64,000 bases of DNA from a phage. Position 1 is the first letter of the stretch, and each line of letters starts with the position of its first letter. Of the stretch, positions 25,731 through 56,500 are shown one piece after another. The DNA lies in assembly GCA_026683435.1 (NCBI GenBank), contig GCA_026683435.1_4866.1; one strand, given 5' to 3'. The translations under genes were made by a program, and so were the position numbers. The notes beneath the pieces were generated by a model. That model did not search any database and was not told where the DNA came from. It worked only from the letters and a program-made list of their open reading frames with translations.

Positions 25731-26030
25731 TTAGCGTTTTTTCAGTGGGAGTAACAGACGACGTTTATGCCAAACTTCGAAATGCATTTCTGCCCACTCG
25801 GTGACTTGACTGTCATCTTTAGGGTTGATATTAGAAATGCTTTTGAAGCGGTTACGGTTACGTTCGTCGATTTCGATTTCCAGAACGCGTTGACCATCAG
25901 CACGTGTGGTCACGTTCAGGATTTTACCAACCACGATCGGACTACCATCGGTATTCTTCTTCGTCGGGGTGGTGTAAATCTCAGGTTCGATACGAGAGGT
26001 TAAAGCGCGAGTCAGTAATTTGATTCTCAT
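25731..26030 (-). CDS. hypothetical protein
   Basis: 99-aa ORF. Confidence 0.55.
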   Translation of the reverse strand: MRIKLLTRALTSRIEPEIYTTPTKKNTDGSPIVVGKILNVTTRADGQRVLEIEIDERNRNRFKSISNINPKDDSQVTEWAEMHFEVWHKRRLLLPLKKR

Positions 26031-26128
26031 CAGATGTTACCTTTTTGCAGTTCTCGTACATAAGGTTTGGGTGATACGTAAAAGACTTACTATGTAGCCC
26101 AATCCCTTATATATTCGAGGTTGATAGA

Positions 26129-34739: not shown

Positions 34740-35255
34740 TCATGGATTATTAAGCGTACTGATAATCTCCTGTCGGAAATCGTTTGCCGCCTGCGACCCC
34801 ACTGGGCGAGAAGCTGCCTGGTGTTTCTTGGCAGGCGGGCTAGACGGATTTAACGGTGCCTGTGGTGTTACCGGCTTGAGTTCTTCAGGCGGAACCGCGG
34901 CCCCAGTGCCTGTCCCTGTTGGAGATTTGGTACCATCATATGGCGATCGAGAACCCAGGCATGTGAAGAGACGATCGTACAGCTTATTGTTCTCCACTTC
35001 GCCATGATCGGACTTCTCTTTTAGCTCCTTATAGGATATCTCCAGATACTGAGTACGCGATTGGACGCTAACCAGTGTGTGGTATTGAACAATGTAGGCA
35101 TATGAGACAAATGCAGAGAACGCGATCAGTGCCACTATCACTAGTGTCACTATTTTCCCGGCTCGTGTTACTTTCTCCCCCTCGCCCGGTTTAAATGCTT
35201 CCCACAGAATCTGTAAGAATGGAAGCAGTTTGAAAACTGATGCTATCATGCTCAC
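34740..35255 (-). CDS. inner-membrane-anchored protein with short coiled-coil and Pro/Ser/Thr-rich C-terminus
   Basis: 171-aa ORF; single hydrophobic helix IVTLVIVALIAFSAFVSYAYIV near N-terminus. Confidence 0.7.
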   Translation of the reverse strand: MSMIASVFKLLPFLQILWEAFKPGEGEKVTRAGKIVTLVIVALIAFSAFVSYAYIVQYHTLVSVQSRTQYLEISYKELKEKSDHGEVENNKLYDRLFTCLGSRSPYDGTKSPTGTGTGAAVPPEELKPVTPQAPLNPSSPPAKKHQAASRPVGSQAANDFRQEIISTLNNP

Positions 35256-35273: not shown

Positions 35274-36653
35274 ATGTATGATTTACAAGGCTTTATTCAA
35301 ATAGCGGCTCTGATTGATAATGGCCCTGGCAACACCGCTCCGGTAGGTGAGTTGTCTGAGCTGTCATATTCGTTCGCTAAAAGCAAGCAGTATTTTACTA
35401 AAGAAAATCTGCAGGTGGAACTGGTTGCTTTTACTTCTAAACGTGACGAGTTGCCTATTAAGACCCCGGCCGTCTTTAGCGACCACGTTCTTACTGTTTC
35501 CCAATGGATCTACCAACAGTCTATCCTGGGCAACTTAAGAAACGACGAAGTTGAATTCCAGCGTTTGCTGTTGGGGCAATTTAATAGTGTCATCAGCGGT
35601 GTTCAGTCTGGCGCGATGATTCAGACTAACAGTAACTGGTTCCCACGTTGGGTCAGTTGGAAACTTGAAACCACAGCAGATAAAGTCGAAGACCCGTCTG
35701 ATGTAAATAACCAGATTATTCTCTGGTTTGCTGATGAAGATTTCAATCAGGACTATACTGGATTTGAAATTGAAGTCCAAATGCCGATATTACCGGTTGA
35801 TACTTTCTTGGCTGTGAAATCTGTAGTCGAAAAGGCAATGGAAGGGTTCAACCTTCCGGATCACCATAATAAGATTAACGAATTAGCTGACGGTTATCCG
35901 TACACTAGCCTGATTACTAACATCTATACTTGGCACGACCAGGAAGACTTTGACTCCACCTTACCGATACCGATGTCGGCTATCATCTACGGACGCGCGG
36001 GTCGTAACCCGAGCAGGATTAAACAAGCGTTACGTGATTACATTTTGGCAAACTCCAGTTTTACTGTGGCGTTGGGTGTCAAAGTGTTCCCAGAAATCTT
36101 TACGACCACCAAGTTCACAATTGTTCCCGGTTGGTCAATTCGTGGGATTCCAAATGAGGAAGATGTTGCGGCATTATACTCGCCGATTCTCCCATATGAT
36201 TTCTGGGTCAAAGCAATCTCCCGATTTGGGGAGTGGACTGTTCAAACCATTACGGAAAAAAATAGTGGAGCGATCTCGATTCCAACTACCGATGTAACGG
36301 ATTTACCGTCCATCTATAAATCGTTGAACGCCGTGGTTATCGCTGGCCCTGAAAACGATTCACGCAAAACGACCCTGCATGACACAATTCCTGACTACGC
36401 ATTAATCGGCACTAATAATGCGGATATTGCGAGAATGTCGAAGAAAACCACCGAGTGGTTGGATCTGTTCTTCCAGGCGTTAATTGCAGCCGAAGAGTAC
36501 CATCCGCACTCCACCCCGTTGGATATCGTGAAGCTCGTAGACGACGTTGATCCTAACGTTTACTTCTACGTCTTCGAATTCGATAACGTGGAATATCGTG
36601 TCTTGGCCCGTAAGGCCATTTGGGATGTTCCTGCGGTAGAGCCAAAAGCCTAA
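35274..36653 (+). CDS. hypothetical protein (probable virion protein)
   Basis: 459-aa ORF; plus-strand island ending in strong terminator. Confidence 0.75.
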   Translation: MYDLQGFIQIAALIDNGPGNTAPVGELSELSYSFAKSKQYFTKENLQVELVAFTSKRDELPIKTPAVFSDHVLTVSQWIYQQSILGNLRNDEVEFQRLLLGQFNSVISGVQSGAMIQTNSNWFPRWVSWKLETTADKVEDPSDVNNQIILWFADEDFNQDYTGFEIEVQMPILPVDTFLAVKSVVEKAMEGFNLPDHHNKINELADGYPYTSLITNIYTWHDQEDFDSTLPIPMSAIIYGRAGRNPSRIKQALRDYILANSSFTVALGVKVFPEIFTTTKFTIVPGWSIRGIPNEEDVAALYSPILPYDFWVKAISRFGEWTVQTITEKNSGAISIPTTDVTDLPSIYKSLNAVVIAGPENDSRKTTLHDTIPDYALIGTNNADIARMSKKTTEWLDLFFQALIAAEEYHPHSTPLDIVKLVDDVDPNVYFYVFEFDNVEYRVLARKAIWDVPAVEPKA

Positions 36654-40969: not shown

Positions 40970-41392
40970 TTAGCTATTCCTTCTCACCCAGGTTTGTACC
41001 GCTGACTCGAAACCTTCGTGTTCGATACCGAGTCGTTTCATTGCCAACATAGTGTTGAGGCTATTCGTAATTTCTTCACGGTAGCGATGGTCGTCCATCT
41101 TACGCCAACACTTCTCCGGGTCAACACCTAAGCGTTGGAGTAGATACGCCTCACGCACCATACCAGGCCGCCAGAATTTAGGGCGGGTAATCGCGATTTC
41201 AATCATGGGTGTCATGTCCAACGTGTGCGCGAGAATACTAACCGGCGTTTCCCCAACTTTATCACGTAACGCTAAACGTAACCACCACTGAACGTTTGCT
41301 TTGGTTTCAGGTAACAGATCGTAGAATAAGGCTGTTTCTTCTTCTGATAAATGATCGTATAGTGATTTTGTTTCGCGAATAGCGGTAACCAT
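40970..41392 (-). CDS. hypothetical protein
   Basis: 140-aa ORF. Confidence 0.6.
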   Translation of the reverse strand: MVTAIRETKSLYDHLSEEETALFYDLLPETKANVQWWLRLALRDKVGETPVSILAHTLDMTPMIEIAITRPKFWRPGMVREAYLLQRLGVDPEKCWRKMDDHRYREEITNSLNTMLAMKRLGIEHEGFESAVQTWVRRNS

Positions 41393-41929: not shown

Positions 41930-42171
41930 TTTAATTCCTCAAAAACTATAGACGCCGGCAGCGTACCAAGCGCTGCTTTAATACACGTACTCAGCGGAGT
42001 ATCATCGAACGCAACACGACCGATAGTACCCACGTTGATGTGTTTTGGATTTACGGGTAAGAACTCCTTCGCCCGTTCGTACTCAGCCCAACAGACATCG
42101 GTGTTTAAAGCTGAAAACCCAGGACGGTGAAACATAAATAGCACCCCTCGCGTAAAAAATACCCCACTCAT
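41926..42171 (-). CDS. hypothetical protein
   Basis: 81-aa ORF, 4-nt overlap with downstream gene. Confidence 0.45.
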   Translation of the reverse strand: MSGVFFTRGVLFMFHRPGFSALNTDVCWAEYERAKEFLPVNPKHINVGTIGRVAFDDTPLSTCIKAALGTLPASIVFEELK

Positions 42172-42206
42172 AGTGAGGCATAATCGTAAGGAGTGCTAAA
42201 ACAGGA

Positions 42207-43643: not shown

Positions 43644-43831
43644 GTCCGTTCTCCTATATCTCGCCACTCACAACGCGTGTCGAACAGACGTTCTTTAAGA
43701 GCAGCAGCTAAATAAACGACCGCAGCGATAACCACTACGGTTGCACAAAAGGAGAGGTACAGTACCATCACAACAAACTGAAGGAACTGAAAACCCCACC
43801 AAGCCCATAAGCGCCAACCGTTATGATGCAT
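43640..43831 (-). CDS. small membrane protein (63 aa)
   Basis: ORF track; hydrophobic helix FQFLQFVVMVLYLSFCATVVVIAAVVYLAAAL. Confidence 0.5.
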   Translation of the reverse strand: MHHNGWRLWAWWGFQFLQFVVMVLYLSFCATVVVIAAVVYLAAALKERLFDTRCEWRDIGERT

Positions 43832-46331
43832 ATTTGATTATTACCCCTTCGTTATAAACCGGTGGAAGCGTTACACCTTCTGGCTCCACGACACAGTAGG
43901 TGGCTTCGTTAAGTTTAGAATGAACTTCCGCTTCATGCGAAACGACCAGCAATTGAGAAAACTCTCCCGACAACGCCAACGATTTAATGAAGTTGACCAG
44001 TCGATTTTTGTGTTCTTCATCCATGCCTTCAGAGGGTTCATCCAATAACAAAGGATAGTTTTGTAAACCAAGCGCTTTATACGCTGTTAAACGAAACATC
44101 ATGTTAAAGATAATACGCTGTGCCTTCGAACCTTTCTTCACATCCGGCACCAGTTCTTCATGGTCTTTTAATCGCACCGGGAAAGTATAATCCAAATCCC
44201 CGTCGGTTAGATCGCATGGAATAACCTGCATCGGATATGCCCATACCGTTTCGATATACCGATTCATTAAATCCATGATGCGGGTAATCGCAGCATAAAA
44301 GTAACGACGCAATAATCCCTTTTCGGGTGAGACGGCATTGATAATCAATCTGGCATGATGGTGTTCTTTGAGCAACTCAGCTTGCTCTTTTTCCAATTCC
44401 GCTAAACGTGCAATAGCCCCTTCCATTTGACGAAACCGTTCACGAGCGGAAGTGTACGCATCGAGCTTCGCTTCGCGTCGGTTTAACAACTCGCGAACCA
44501 CGACGTTGTTAACGGAGATGTTCATTTCCGATACCAGATGTTCGTAGCCTTTTTGGAAACGTTCGATTGCTTCTTTGGTTTGTTGCAGTTGGGTGGTTTC
44601 GCGTTCCAGCACATTGGCTTGTCTGCGGTATTCTATCAGTCGACGGTTAGCCCCGTCCAGTTGTGAACGGATATGTTCAATTTTCTGGCTCAGCGCACCA
44701 TCAACGTTACCTACTGCGGCAACAGCCTCTTGCCATTCCCGTTCCGCTGTTGCAAGCTTCTCCGATTGACGCAGATACATCATGGCCGAATCTAGCTCTT
44801 CAGTAAAGGCACGTGCAATGGCACCGTAACGATCCCGCGCCATGGTGAAGATATCCAGCTCCTGCAGTTTACGGAAAAACAAACCGACAACGGGATGGTT
44901 GGAATACGACATGACGATTTCGCGAATCGTACGTAAGCTACGGACGTCCTCTTCAATCTCTTTGCGGTCACGCAAAAGACTATCCATTTCGTCTTTCAGC
45001 TGCTTCTTCCAACCTTCATTATCGTTGATGGCCTTTTCAATTTCAGGTAACGACTTACGAATCCCAGGACGGAAACGGTGGTTACACTGTGGACAATCAA
45101 CTTCTGCAGTTTCTAAGAAGTGTTGACGGTCGTGGTATAAACCGTGTAGCACATTCTCACAACGTTGCAGCTTTTCAGATAGACCCGCAGAGGTTAAATC
45201 CATACCCTGTAAACGCTTCTCTAACGCTCCCAGGCGCTCTGTTGTCTTTAACTGGTCCAGATGCATGGACAACGGTAAATTCCAGTTACAGGCATCGTTT
45301 AACGCGTTCTGAATGCTATCCACATCGATGCGGGTGCCTTCAAACAGAGCCGGGAACATCCAGTTCTGTTGGAACGTTGCCAGTTCCTGTTTTAAGCTGT
45401 CGATTGTTTGTTTTAGACCGGTATGGTTGCGCATCAGATATGCTTGACGCGACTCCTCATCCAGTAGCTGTGACAACTCTTTATTGTACATGTTGCATTC
45501 AGTTTCAGCAGAGGCCGCTTGCTCACGCCAGGCAACCACACGACTTTGAAACTCGTTAATCAGTTCGTCAGAAGGCAGAACGCCATAACGTTCCATAATG
45601 AGTTTTACAGCCGGTTGCAACGAGGCAATGCGTTTCCGGATACTATCAACCGAAACGGCGTTATCTAAACCGGGTCTCGCTTCAATGGTGCGGTTTAGTT
45701 CCTGAAGCTCAACGTCCAGTTCTTTCAAACGAACTTCTAAACGTGCACGATCTTCTTCATCGTCCACCACGCGCATTTTTGCCTCACCGATTTTACGGCC
45801 GGTGTGCTCAATGGCCCCACTTAAACTGGAAGCGAGTTTACGCAGACGACGATAACAACCAACGACGTACGTCAGATCAGATTCTGACATTAACGTAAAC
45901 CATTTACGACGAACTTCAGTGGTAGCGTCTGTTAATAAGGTTTCACCGTTAATTAACTCTTTGATTTCTTTGGTGATCCCGGTTAACTGTTCCACCATGG
46001 AGTTGTAAACTTTGGCGTTTACCGAGTCTACGACGGAGACACCTTTAGTGATGTTGAAGATACTACAAGACAGAGAAGAGCCACGACGCAGGACTTCAAA
46101 CTTAAGACGGTCGTCCCCAACTAACGCGTAGTTAGTGTAGGAACCACCTTCACGGAATTCTGATTTTGCTGGAGCTAAGGGGAGAAAAACAGATAGGAGG
46201 CTTGTTTTACCGCAGCCGTTGCCACCGAGGATGATGGTAACGGTTGACTTAAGGGTGAAATCAAACGTTTCGATTTCATGTAACCCCATGCCGGTAAATC
46301 CTTTCAAAATGATACGTTCGACCTTGAGCAT
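43821..46331 (-). CDS. Rad50/SbcC-like recombination/repair ATPase
   Basis: N-terminal Walker A GGNGCGKTSLL; central CxxC zinc hook (CPQCNHRF) within coiled-coil-like sequence; C-terminal Walker B LLLDEPSEGMD; 836 aa. Confidence 0.85.
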   Translation of the reverse strand: MLKVERIILKGFTGMGLHEIETFDFTLKSTVTIILGGNGCGKTSLLSVFLPLAPAKSEFREGGSYTNYALVGDDRLKFEVLRRGSSLSCSIFNITKGVSVVDSVNAKVYNSMVEQLTGITKEIKELINGETLLTDATTEVRRKWFTLMSESDLTYVVGCYRRLRKLASSLSGAIEHTGRKIGEAKMRVVDDEEDRARLEVRLKELDVELQELNRTIEARPGLDNAVSVDSIRKRIASLQPAVKLIMERYGVLPSDELINEFQSRVVAWREQAASAETECNMYNKELSQLLDEESRQAYLMRNHTGLKQTIDSLKQELATFQQNWMFPALFEGTRIDVDSIQNALNDACNWNLPLSMHLDQLKTTERLGALEKRLQGMDLTSAGLSEKLQRCENVLHGLYHDRQHFLETAEVDCPQCNHRFRPGIRKSLPEIEKAINDNEGWKKQLKDEMDSLLRDRKEIEEDVRSLRTIREIVMSYSNHPVVGLFFRKLQELDIFTMARDRYGAIARAFTEELDSAMMYLRQSEKLATAEREWQEAVAAVGNVDGALSQKIEHIRSQLDGANRRLIEYRRQANVLERETTQLQQTKEAIERFQKGYEHLVSEMNISVNNVVVRELLNRREAKLDAYTSARERFRQMEGAIARLAELEKEQAELLKEHHHARLIINAVSPEKGLLRRYFYAAITRIMDLMNRYIETVWAYPMQVIPCDLTDGDLDYTFPVRLKDHEELVPDVKKGSKAQRIIFNMMFRLTAYKALGLQNYPLLLDEPSEGMDEEHKNRLVNFIKSLALSGEFSQLLVVSHEAEVHSKLNEATYCVVEPEGVTLPPVYNEGVIIKYAS

Positions 46332-46398
46332 GTTTGCCTTCTAATGAGAAAGTATTAGTCGTTCATATCCAAAAGGTCATGCGTAAAAAAGAAGAAAT

Positions 46399-51962: not shown

Positions 51963-53237
51963 TTACAGTAAACGCAAATCTGCGACAAACAATAGTTGAC
52001 GGCCGTACTTAGTCACTTCTTTCCAGCCATTGTTAACACCCCATTTGATGATAGCGTCGTAATGCCATTGTTTCAGTTCGTTGGTACCCCACGCATCCCG
52101 TACCGCCTTCGCCGACATCAAATAAGCAGGTTCGGCAACGGAGCGCATTTCAGAATCTGGCAGGCGAGAAACAACATAACTGTTCACACGCTGCAGCTTT
52201 CCTGTCACCTGTATCCAGAACGCAGGCGATATTGTATTTGTCGGTCGGCAGTCAAATACCCACGCCGTGTCATTTTCACTGGCCGGGGTCTTGCGTTTAT
52301 AGATGCTTAACAGTATTTCTGACTGGATAACTTCGCGGAAAACAGCAAGAAGAGTGAGGACTTTCTCATTAACCACCTCATCCTTTTCGACCTTATAGTA
52401 ATCTTTAAGGTTTCCTGGCTCTGTTATCGGCATTACTGACCAAACATCGGCGTCTAACATCTCACCGAAATAATGGTTAGCGTTTTCATCAGATGTCCAG
52501 AACATCATATTGCTATCATTGGCTATGGTGACTAGATCACGCAGTGCTTCCTTGGTGTCTTCGTCAATTTCCACAGGTTTGGCTGCTTCACGCGGTGCGT
52601 TTTTCGTGTAGAATCTGCGCTTGCTTACCGCTCTATTCCATACGGTAGTAATTTGGTACGCAGTGAATTCGGGGAACTGCTGCACCAACACTTCCGCATC
52701 AACATCAAGCCGCTCTGAATTAAAGTTTTGTAATTTCTCATTAAACCCTGTATTCAGCTCTCCGCCAATCCACCAGTTGCTATCGCTTAGTGCAGGCATG
52801 TCAGGTGTTAACTCGAACACCGGTTTACCGGTCAGCAGAGTAAGAATGTAGTGCACCCACATTGTGTTACCCTCAGCAATGGCGCGTCCGATGTTTTGAT
52901 TACCCGATAGGTAAGCTACCCGCGAATCCCCTTCGAATGTCATGGTTAATTCAACCCACGGCGCTAAGTCAGAGACGTGGTGGCCTAAACGGCACTTTAC
53001 TTCCCCTTTGTCAAGCAGACGCTTTTCGACAACGGTTGAGAGCTTTTGTGGCAGGCACGCACAATCCTGCCACGTTACGTCGCTGTAAGCCATACTCCGA
53101 ATATTGAACTGCATTCCCAACAGTACAATTGAGTTAGTAATTACTGCATTAAAGAATGCTTCTTTCGGTGTCTGGTAAACTAATTCGTATTCGTTATACA
53201 TTTGGTATTTCCTTTTAAAGTACACTAAAGTGACCAA
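51963..53237 (-). CDS. hypothetical protein
   Basis: 424-aa ORF (start may be internal ATG). Confidence 0.7.
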   Translation of the reverse strand: MVTLVYFKRKYQMYNEYELVYQTPKEAFFNAVITNSIVLLGMQFNIRSMAYSDVTWQDCACLPQKLSTVVEKRLLDKGEVKCRLGHHVSDLAPWVELTMTFEGDSRVAYLSGNQNIGRAIAEGNTMWVHYILTLLTGKPVFELTPDMPALSDSNWWIGGELNTGFNEKLQNFNSERLDVDAEVLVQQFPEFTAYQITTVWNRAVSKRRFYTKNAPREAAKPVEIDEDTKEALRDLVTIANDSNMMFWTSDENANHYFGEMLDADVWSVMPITEPGNLKDYYKVEKDEVVNEKVLTLLAVFREVIQSEILLSIYKRKTPASENDTAWVFDCRPTNTISPAFWIQVTGKLQRVNSYVVSRLPDSEMRSVAEPAYLMSAKAVRDAWGTNELKQWHYDAIIKWGVNNGWKEVTKYGRQLLFVADLRLL

Positions 53238-54757: not shown

Positions 54758-54965
54758 TTTAATTACGTGTGAGCTGTATATTGTGACAATAAACCTCCTA
54801 ACTGTAACGATAACCCAAATCGCTTGTACACGGTTAGCCACTTTTTTCGCACAAAAGCCGGTTTATTGTCAACTAATTTACGAGACGGGGCAGTTAATAT
54901 GCCTCGAAGTACAAGTAGTTGAACATAGGGTTCTTCTGCTATCATTTGTTAATGGAGATAAGTAA

Positions 54966-55175
54966 ATGAGCATTCGTGAAATCACCGCAGGCAGCGACGT
55001 TTCTGGTCTGGTAGAAGCAGGCACTGTTCAGGTTTCTGGACTGAGCACCGTTACCGAAGTTACCGAAGCGCTGGCTAAGAAAGCCGAAGCTGAAGGCGGC
55101 GTAGCATTTAAAGTTACCGCTTGTGGCGGCAACAACAAAATGTTCGGCAACGCCATCTATTACGTAAACGCGTAA
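54966..55175 (+). CDS. YdgH/BhsA/McbA-like (DUF1471) small protein, no signal peptide
   Basis: 69-aa ORF with RBS ggaga and strong terminator; pattern GTVQVSG…ALAKKAEAEGG…FKVT…GNNKMFGNAIYY matches DUF1471 signature. Confidence 0.75.
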   Translation: MSIREITAGSDVSGLVEAGTVQVSGLSTVTEVTEALAKKAEAEGGVAFKVTACGGNNKMFGNAIYYVNA

Positions 55176-55206
55176 TCGGCCTGCAGGCAAAAAAAAGATA
55201 TAGGTA

Positions 55207-55229
55207 CCCTACTCCCAACGGGAGTAGGG
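55207..55229. terminator. bidirectional intrinsic terminator
   Basis: hairpin ccctactccc-aac-gggagtaggg flanked by A-run and long T-run. Confidence 0.75.
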
Positions 55230-55237
55230 TTTACCTT

Positions 55238-56500
55238 TTATTTTTTTCGTGCTTTGTAGCGATGCATTTCAACAAATGGCTTACCCCAAGCCCCGAAAGG
55301 CCCGACGATCGCCTGCGCGTCGTTTACCAAATTCTGGTTATACCAACGCGCGTTCCCCAACAAAAAGTTTTCCCGGTCGAAGAATGTGGTATTAAAGACC
55401 CACTCCCCTTCTTCCCAGGTCGGCCAGTACCCTACACATTTACCAATACGGTTAAAGATAGGACCTAGCGTCTTCTTCCCATCTGGGTCAGTCGGGTCTT
55501 TTAAATAGAACCGGCCCCAGATAGCGTTGTGGCTTATTCCGTGAATCTCTTTTTCGAGATACGGGTTGTCTATCGTAAAGATAAACGAGGATTCGTGCGT
55601 CAGCAACGCTTTTAACGTTTCTGAGTTACGAATACGTTGAACGGACGTAGGCGTACTTAAATCACCTACACCGATGGCGTCCCAATCGTAATAGCGACGG
55701 GTTTCCAATACAATCTTCGCCACGCTAAGGTTTGGCAGACTCAGCATAATCGCACGGTCGCTGAAATAGCCCTGCGGTGGCAACCAATGCAGAATACCCC
55801 CGATGACGAACCCAACGGTTTTCCCTGTAATGGAATCGGGTAAGGTCAACATTAACGAAGAATAGTAATCTCGCGTAGTATCGAGTTTGTTCATCGTTAA
55901 ACCGGATATGGGGTAAGTCTTCACTTTACCAATATTCGCCATCACTAGACAGCCGATGTCGGGTGTGTTGGCTCTCCGCACGATGTTACCAGCGCCGGTT
56001 AAGCGAACACCCACTGGGTCAGATTGGTGCGGTACCCATTGACCGTTGATGTTGTACAGTACCCCGGTACGGTATTTCTCTTTCCACTCATCGTCGCAGA
56101 CTACAACAACGTCGTGTGCATCATCAGGATTGAAGTCCTGAGTGTAGTGGTACCCAGGAGGGCACAGGTGCGTTTCTACGGGCACATCTGCATTAATAGA
56201 CTGGTAATGTGCCTCAACGAATTCGAGCTTCGGTAGGCCCTTCCCAAGCGTTGGAATCGCGATTCCTGACTTGGTGTTTAACCAATCTTGCAACGTGTCC
56301 GTACGGTTTTGTAAATCAGCCAGGTGATACTGGCTATAGAAGGTATATTCGGCACCTAGTGCTTCTAGTCCTACTTCGAAAAAGTGGTAGTTAGCACAAA
56401 GGGTATTTAAGGGCTGCGTGACATCGATGGTTCCCCAAGTTCGGGTGTCTCGAGAGAAGCCAAAAGCGCTGTCGGCCCGCACTTGATAAGCAGTAGTCAC
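55238..56500 (-). CDS. hypothetical protein
   Basis: 420-aa ORF between two plus-strand virion islands. Confidence 0.7.
   Translation of the reverse strand: MTTAYQVRADSAFGFSRDTRTWGTIDVTQPLNTLCANYHFFEVGLEALGAEYTFYSQYHLADLQNRTDTLQDWLNTKSGIAIPTLGKGLPKLEFVEAHYQSINADVPVETHLCPPGYHYTQDFNPDDAHDVVVVCDDEWKEKYRTGVLYNINGQWVPHQSDPVGVRLTGAGNIVRRANTPDIGCLVMANIGKVKTYPISGLTMNKLDTTRDYYSSLMLTLPDSITGKTVGFVIGGILHWLPPQGYFSDRAIMLSLPNLSVAKIVLETRRYYDWDAIGVGDLSTPTSVQRIRNSETLKALLTHESSFIFTIDNPYLEKEIHGISHNAIWGRFYLKDPTDPDGKKTLGPIFNRIGKCVGYWPTWEEGEWVFNTTFFDRENFLLGNARWYNQNLVNDAQAIVGPFGAWGKPFVEMHRYKARKK

Follow-up and report, generated by a model that had tools for sequence, protein, structure and literature searches.

A leaderless DUF1471-domain protein encoded among the tail genes of SPN3US-like jumbo phages

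Our analysis of a 64,000-nucleotide stretch of phage DNA (hereafter the window; GenBank assembly GCA_026683435.1, contig GCA_026683435.1_4866.1) shows that a 69-codon gene within it encodes a DUF1471 protein of the kind that enterobacteria send to the periplasm, here made without a signal peptide and held in a fixed position between tail genes in several genera of jumbo phages. We propose, with a probability of roughly 0.45 for the account as a whole, that this is a captured host domain which accumulates in the cytoplasm and would act there as an accessory or assembly factor for the neighbouring baseplate and tail-fibre proteins.

In DNA, and in reverse orientation, the region is 98-99% identical to SPN3US, a phage of Salmonella, and to some 30 related jumbo phages of about 240 kb (Seoulvirus), and the gene is SPN3US_0172 (gp172, ACQ60_gp094), whose protein is 100% identical. 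It is the same known gene as SPN3US gp172 and its annotated orthologues, with no material difference, and we call it gp172 throughout. RefSeq already names gp172 a "DUF1471 domain-containing protein", the orthologues of Erwinia phages Kwan (gp191) and Wellington bear the deposited name "putative multiple stress resistance protein BhsA", and PHROGs holds gp172 in phrog_8068 (E=3e-33, function unknown); Caitlin gp182 and EarlPhillipIV gp168 are further annotated orthologues, and the records of the group carry a domain name or "hypothetical protein" only, without a function. The gene, the domain label and the proteomic detection of the product are thus already public. The searchable literature contains no description of a leaderless DUF1471 gene fixed in the baseplate module across a jumbo-phage clade, nor of the extreme codon bias of gp172 and its own, putatively phage-type, promoter; a literature search on DUF1471 and phage found no paper on gp172, and the comparative jumbo-phage review of Iyer et al. 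makes no mention of DUF1471, BhsA or RcsF. A separate observation concerns GenBank records LR535903-LR535913 (Salmonella phages SPFM5-SPFM15), several of which annotate in the gp172 region a 61-aa protein (P0009-P0011) composed of gp172 segments in permuted order, for example MFGNAIYYVNVTEVTEALAKKAEAEGGVAFGSDV...; by tblastn only about 30-60% of gp172 is covered in the SPFM records, as two pieces in four of them, which suggests that these assemblies are locally scrambled.

That gp172 consists of a single DUF1471 (YdgH/BhsA/McbA-like) domain is near certain. The protein matches PF07338 (YdgH_BhsA-like, formerly DUF1471) with E=3.3e-11 and 43.5 bits, where the gathering score is 27, and the match spans residues 16-66, or profile positions 2-54 of 55. 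An AlphaFold2 model built from 31 aligned sequences of phage and bacterial relatives (mean pLDDT 89) has a short strand, a strand, a long helix and two further strands, as in the published mixed alpha+beta fold of DUF1471 with its short N-terminal strand, strand, long helix, strand and strand (Eletsky 2014, PMC4092069), and its fold neighbours are those that Eletsky et al. found. The initial annotation, made from the letters alone, had recognized a DUF1471 pattern and proposed a Pfam search as its check; the profile match above the gathering score and the confident predicted fold bear it out. By profile, gp172 has the same domain as the DUF1471/YhcN proteins BhsA/YcfR, McbA/YbiM, YbiJ, YahO, YhcN, SrfN and YdgH, with which it shares the signature residues G19, V21, L36, A40, G44, G54-G55-x-N57, G61, A63 and Y66, and it has the size of a mature host protein.

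The resemblance does not extend to any particular host paralogue. The closest bacterial sequences, BhsA-like proteins of Salmonella, Serratia and Yersinia, are 43-52% identical to gp172, and the nearest NCBIfam models, McbA (NF040473, 40.9 bits against a cut-off of 110), BhsA (NF047859, 39.4 against 90) and YbiJ (29.6 against 110), leave it far under every equivalog cut-off (90-125 bits). We therefore reject orthology to BhsA or McbA, and since the scores fall under the equivalog cut-off, the "BhsA" label on the Kwan and Wellington proteins expresses family-level resemblance only. With RcsF, the outer-membrane lipoprotein sensor of the Rcs phosphorelay, the similarity is one of fold only (11% identity): RcsF has redox-active disulfide cysteines and a lipoprotein signal, whereas gp172 has a single non-conserved cysteine, Cys53, and neither lipobox nor leader, and it is not a member of that group. 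The DUF1471 family has been stated to occur only in Enterobacteriaceae genomes (Eletsky 2014, PMC4092069); gp172-type proteins depart from this in being phage-encoded, though by phages of Salmonella, Escherichia, Proteus and Erwinia. Unlike the stress-regulated chromosomal genes of the family, gp172 is encoded by a lytic jumbo phage within a block of tail genes.

Most members of the DUF1471/YhcN family carry an N-terminal Sec signal and are periplasmic, whereas gp172 has none and is made in the cytoplasm, and its lack of a leader is as close to certain as the domain itself. Signal peptides were judged by a hydropathy and charge heuristic (Kyte-Doolittle, 11-residue window), by which the best N-terminal window of gp172 scores 1.08, against 1.9-2.7 in bacterial relatives. 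An N-terminal extension of the frame is impossible, because the in-frame codon at 54963-54965 is a TAA that abuts the ATG. The early reading that the protein has no hydrophobic leader is thereby confirmed, and the feature is one of the clade. The 21 distinct phage-type proteins recovered by profile searches (66-78 aa) start with M(SI)(K/R)E(F/I) or MK/QxF and none has a hydrophobic N-terminus, while all ten recovered bacterial relatives (78-91 aa) have one, as a classic MK...h-region...AxA leader. Since the phage N-terminus aligns to the bacterial signal-peptidase site, the phage protein corresponds to the mature domain, including its first short strand; our results show, in other words, a mature enterobacterial periplasmic protein in which the Sec leader of about 20 residues is swapped for Met plus 2-4 residues. 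When 1.84 billion cluster representatives were searched exhaustively with the HMM, 298 matched, and among the best 150 of these the complete leaderless clusters number four, all phage-type, and the remaining apparently leaderless entries are fragments or have mis-called starts. A comparison with bacterial DUF1471 proteins by phylogeny, which had been suggested at the outset, separated phage from bacterial sequences in 167 of 200 neighbour-joining bootstraps, on a small bacterial sample, and in IMG/VR all seven confirmed loci lie on contigs of 224-248 kb.

The position of gp172 in the tail module is conserved, again near certainly. Because gp173, gp171 and gp170, all tail proteins by published mass spectrometry, flank the gene (Table 1), the description of the locus as a virion-gene island was accurate; gp171 is an essential gene and possibly encodes a baseplate or fibre protein (PMC5105663). 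The order is fixed. A gene for a baseplate protein (+, about 305 aa) is followed, after a gap that measures 160-410 bp across relatives, by the DUF1471 gene (+), by the gene for the gp171 homologue (-, about 418 aa) and by that for a large tail protein (+). This arrangement is shared by Seoulvirus, Machinavirus, Wellingtonvirus, Derbicusvirus and metagenomic contigs (the set compared comprised SPN3US, pEa_SNUABM_29, Caitlin, pEa_SNUABM_9, EarlPhillipIV, Kwan and five metagenomic lineages). Kwan is a partial exception, with a 53-codon ORF in the gap and gp190 between the DUF1471 gene and the gp171 homologue. In most pairs the identity of gp172 is no lower than that of the tail genes on either side, even where the latter has dropped to about 42%: between the window and Caitlin it is 78% for the DUF1471 protein and 61% and 64% for the flanks, and between Caitlin and L017 it is 94%, with 74% and 77%. 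Values of dN/dS are 0.06-0.25 among closely related orthologues and rise to as much as about 0.8 when the divergent allele of pEa_SNUABM_9 is one of the pair, which shows that the gene is under purifying selection. Given the fixed order, an identity that tracks the flanks and these dN/dS values, gp172 is a vertically inherited, constrained gene of the clade. As in a moron, a promoter-like motif of its own and a terminator are present, but the gene is found at the same site in every relative examined; with no patchy presence, and with co-divergence from the flanks, we reject a sporadic moron.

The same evidence bears on whether gp172 could be a dispensable hitch-hiker, that is, a useless captured host fragment or a mis-called ORF. 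The gene is small, of unknown function and patchily detected in virions, as such a passenger might be. Its low dN/dS among close orthologues, its retention in every examined member of several genera, the peptides observed by mass spectrometry, the top codon bias of the window and the confident fold all speak against this, and we regard the idea as very improbable, and by conservation and peptides together as effectively refuted.

Two variants of the locus deserve mention in their own right. In pEa_SNUABM_9 (L010:5001-5210) the flanks are 81-84% identical to those of Caitlin and the upstream gap is Caitlin-like, and the DUF1471 protein is only 46% identical; such an allele within such flanks indicates, as far as comparison of the sequences goes, an allele replacement by recombination. 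In Wellingtonvirus (Kwan and Wellington) a second leaderless DUF1471 gene lies directly 3' of the first. It is Kwan gp190 (L003:3742-4302), or Wellington A0A345BLJ6, and encodes 186 aa with an N-terminal PF07338 match (29.7 bits) and a C-terminal extension of about 120 residues which is acidic and of low complexity and therefore probably disordered.

The signals around gp172 are collected in Table 1. The 69-aa frame and the strong ribosome-binding site of the initial annotation are both present, and orthologues have GGAG or GAGGG at the position that matches the Shine-Dalgarno sequence of gp172. Its frequency of optimal codons (Fop 0.88) ranks first among the 81 ORFs of the window (mean 0.535, z=4.3), and orthologues have 0.74-0.85; these values were computed with the standard E. 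coli optimal-codon set of the literature, not one derived from Salmonella. Because of this rank and of a published table note on abundance in the cell (see below), gp172 looks very highly expressed. An 82-codon antisense ORF (54942-55190, -) spans the whole DUF1471 gene and exceeds it in length, so that a naive longest-ORF gene caller chooses the wrong strand here; the Pfam match, the conservation and the published peptides from the + strand rule it out as a real gene. By inspection the gp172 sequence contains no prohead-protease motif A-x-E, and processing by that protease is rejected.

Table 1. Features of the gp172 locus, and further matches to its promoter-like motif, in window coordinates
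Feature	Position	Strand	Remarks
gp173 orthologue, baseplate assembly/puncture protein, 310 aa	53825-54757	+	phrog_3216, E=2.4e-122; RefSeq; tail by published mass spectrometry
Gap 5' of the DUF1471 gene, 208 bp	54758-54965	+	
P1-like motif, TTACG-N10-TATATTG	54763-54783	+	directly 3' of gp173 stop; position and sequence conserved in 10 aligned gaps
Conserved non-coding block GCCACTTTTTTCGCACAAAAG, A/T hairpin	54837-54857	+	CAC-T.TTTTC core invariant in 10/10 orthologous gaps
P2 promoter-like motif TTACGAGACGGGGCAGTTAATATG (TTACG-N15-TATG)	54878-54901	+	TATG invariant in 10/10 orthologous gaps
9-mer TGCTATCAT	54937-54945	+	within putative 5' UTR of gp172
Shine-Dalgarno GGAG	54954-54957	+	8 nt 5' of gp172 ATG
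DUF1471 CDS (gp172 orthologue)	54966-55175	+	ATG to TAA, 69 aa, starts MSIREITAGSD...
Bidirectional intrinsic terminator	55189-55247	both	A8 run, stem-loop 55206-55230, T-rich run
gp171 orthologue, 420 aa, convergent	55238-56500	-	phrog_3337; phiKZ ORF130 homologue; tail by published mass spectrometry
gp170 orthologue, 1237 aa	56568-60281	+	tail, paralogue family C (PMC10052503 Table S2)
Motif matches before same-strand starts, (T-rich)TTACG-N13-15-TATG	26059-26081, 41048-41070, 42169-42189, 46364-46386	-	

The upstream gap, which had been put at 200 bp, contains two copies of a promoter-like motif. Ten aligned orthologous gaps give the consensus T-rich-TTAC(A/G)-N11-15-TATG, with two copies per gap, the proximal one 40-65 nt 5' of the ATG, and at the P1-like position they read TTTTTACAG-N13-TATATGAC. 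Across the window, TTAC[AG]-N11-15-TATG occurs 11 times against 5.7 in shuffles, and five of the 11 matches are followed within 80 nt by the start of a gene on their own strand (P=1.5e-4). Among these five starts are those of an sbcC-like gene (43821-46331) and of a 98-codon ORF (25731-26030) that has the second-highest codon bias of the window. In phiKZ, the element AAanTTACc around -24 marks the middle promoters, and the late ones have a TATG whose G is +1 (PMC4666361). P2 resembles both elements, here as a match of sequence only, and by analogy with the phiKZ promoters a phage RNA polymerase would transcribe gp172 from G54901, which is probably its start and would give a putative 5' UTR of 64 nt (54902-54965). 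No sigma-70 promoter was found in the 208-bp gap, and we reject one as the driver of gp172.

Other parts of the gap are also conserved. Across the ten gaps the non-coding block between the motifs has the consensus CCACTTTTTTCGC, with two near-invariant positions, and in the Caitlin-type block, CTATTTTCGCA-AATAG, both sides of the stem have changed. Most of the Erwinia-phage relatives have, between both motifs, a covarying GC hairpin with a T-run, that is, an intrinsic terminator, which is absent from the window (the orthologous gaps compared include L005:3231-3500, L010:4729-5000 and L003:3229-3455). Rfam families gave no match at E<=1 in the gap or around the gene, folding of the gap is marginal against shuffles (z=-1.8), and the putative 5' UTR folds no better than shuffles (z=-0.7). 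The segment 54758-54901 could, to judge from these patterns, encode a short non-coding RNA or a structured 3' UTR of gp173. In SPN3US-type gaps a perfect 11-bp inverted repeat, GACAATAAACC ... GGTTTATTGTC (54783-54875), brackets the conserved block; it is not evident in the gaps of Erwinia phages.

Downstream, the stem-loop begins 30 bases past the gp172 stop and has an 11-bp stem with seven G-C pairs. The terminator folds at -31 kcal/mol (z about -5) on both strands, no shuffle being as stable, and is therefore common to gp172 and the convergent gp171. A strong terminator had indeed been claimed for the gene, and the 11-bp stem-loop with its T-rich tail substantiates this; the orthologues of Caitlin and EarlPhillipIV show a matching architecture 3' of the gene. 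With promoter-like motif, GGAG and bidirectional terminator, gp172 would form an insulated single-gene unit.

A further claim about the gap, that it shares a short string with the leader of the gene at 35274, stands as to presence but not as to meaning. The 9-mer TGCTATCAT occurs three times in the window, in the gap, at 35241-35249 (25 nt before the ATG of gene 35274) and, within a gene, at 52511. Of 200 gap 9-mers, 71 recur somewhere in the window, and four recur in the 60-nt leader of another gene, against a mean of 4.13 in shuffled gaps, so that the apparent enrichment of TGCTATCAT taken alone is that of a word picked after the fact. Copies with one mismatch are not enriched (13 against 11.3 expected), and the 9-mer is not conserved in Erwinia phages or in pEa_SNUABM_29, which is of the same genus and has TACTTTTCAT at this position. 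At chance level, unconserved and with an intragenic third copy, it is rejected as a shared regulatory element.

Where gp172 resides can be judged from published proteomics of SPN3US. In virions purified on step CsCl gradients it was found with four unique peptides, six spectra and 81% coverage, as the smallest virion protein and one of low abundance; its status was left unresolved, it was missing from 47(am1) particles, and the authors suggest that the low-mass region of the gel may have been missed (Ali et al. 2017, PMC5694885). Table S2 of Reilly et al. 2020 labels it "Tail" and is the sole source of the note "Unusually high abundance in cell"; its spectra there number six in wild type, three in am59-supD, none in tailed am59-supF, two in "heads" and 13 in a crude differential-centrifugation pellet, and three purified prohead-plus-tail samples have none, with 39 for gp171 and 27 for gp173 (PMC7411985). 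Wild-type virions purified on dual gradients in triplicate (79,677 spectra) have no row for gp172, with 85, 86 and 79 spectra for gp171 and 13, 14 and 12 for gp173, in a table that includes even trace non-virion proteins such as gp174 (Scheuch et al. 2023, PMC10052503 Table S2). It had been predicted that a protein without leader would either stay cytoplasmic or be built into the particle, and the published data, a trace in step-gradient virions and absence after stringent purification, fit that alternative. In view of this pattern and of the codon bias, the simplest reading is that gp172 is an abundant soluble protein that binds tails weakly or contaminates less pure preparations.

These data also bear on the possibility that gp172 is a genuine structural component of tail or baseplate, present in low copy number. 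An envelope-type domain of the host would then have been taken into the particle, possibly for contact with surface polysaccharide, and would be missed in some preparations because a 7-kDa protein would run off gels or be stripped by the second CsCl gradient. Its four peptides and 81% coverage in CsCl-purified wild-type virions, and the authors' own remark on low masses (PMC5694885), are what one would expect of such a component, as are the label "Tail" (PMC7411985) and the constant place of the gene within the baseplate module; a signal peptide is not required of virion proteins, and SrfN, a DUF1471 protein, binds sulfated polysaccharides (PMC4092069). We nevertheless consider it unlikely. 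From step to dual gradients the true tail proteins rose two- to three-fold, with spectra going from 35 to about 83 for gp171 and from 8 to 13 for gp173, while gp172 was absent from all three replicates. Its scatter over the other samples, with nothing in the tail-containing ones and am59-supF, a little in "heads" and most in the crude pellet, fits a contaminant from an abundant pool, and the extreme codon bias would be disproportionate for a low-copy part.

The reading that we prefer, a soluble accessory or assembly factor, can be set out as a sequence of steps. Capture of a BhsA/McbA-like gene from a host probably took place in an ancestor of the SPN3US, Machinavirus, Wellingtonvirus and Derbicusvirus jumbo phages; the gene would then have lost its leader and become fixed between those for the baseplate protein gp173 and the tail protein gp171. 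Transcription by the RNA polymerase of the phage itself would start at the TATG of P2, GGAG and host-optimal codons would drive very high translation, and the strong bidirectional terminator would close the transcript. The protein would fold and accumulate in the cytoplasm and serve as an abundant accessory or assembly factor for the adjacent baseplate and tail-fibre proteins or, alternatively, as a labile peripheral component of the tail, and this is the weakest step; binding tails weakly, it would be lost on stringent purification. Small assembly chaperones that stay out of the virion offer a parallel: gp57A of phage T4 is small, abundant and encoded with tail genes. Similarly, gp172 is small, encoded with tail genes, apparently made in excess and absent from the particle or present in traces; the analogy is one of function only, there being no relation in sequence or fold. 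We favour the assembly role because of the strict synteny and the co-divergence with the flanks. The evidence for a morphogenetic role as such consists of gene position and weak co-purification, and since gp172 is absent from purified-tail samples and from dual-gradient virions, it may also be unrelated to the tail.

An abundance far above baseplate stoichiometry and an insulated transcription unit would suit a host-directed function equally well. In that case gp172 would be an effector with no part in assembly, remaining in the cytoplasm until holin lesions or lysis release it, as with leaderless endolysins, and then acting on the envelope; or it could act after the burst on neighbouring cells or debris, for example on surface properties or by receptor masking, echoing BhsA and McbA. 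The biology of the family, which is one of envelope stress, permeability and biofilm (PMC4092069), agrees with this, as do the very high expression (by Fop and the note in PMC7411985), the promoter-terminator cassette and the want of stable association with virions. The replaced allele of pEa_SNUABM_9 within its 81-84% identical flanks and the tandem copy of Kwan and Wellington with its probably disordered tail are also patterns more typical of host-interaction genes. Yet nothing points to export or to an effect on the envelope, gp172 has no link to lysis genes, and, unlike the typical accessory gene for host takeover, it belongs to the core genes, has kept its syntenic place among tail genes over deep divergence and has changed less than its flanks. 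We take an effector of this kind to be rather improbable. Its boldest form, that in this clade of jumbo phages an envelope-stress domain of the periplasm has become an effector, leaderless and expressed in massive amounts, which is released through holin lesions or at the burst and alters the outer membrane or surface polysaccharide, is in our view a long shot. If true, its targets would be the dying cell, debris and neighbours, with effects such as a smaller loss of progeny on debris, modulation of aggregation or biofilm, or disruption of the outer membrane, and it would provide a first mechanistic handle on the binding targets of DUF1471.

The practical significance of these results is limited, the gene being annotated already and no unusual mechanism having been shown. 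Their interest lies in the biology of the domain. DUF1471 proteins rank with the small envelope proteins that stress induces most strongly in E. coli and Salmonella. For phage biology, gp172 illustrates clearly how a domain from the host periplasm is put to new use in the cytoplasm or in assembly. For the family, a leaderless, constrained and highly expressed phage copy offers a simpler genetic system in which to ask what DUF1471 binds, in a phage, SPN3US, for which amber genetics and deep proteomics are already at hand.
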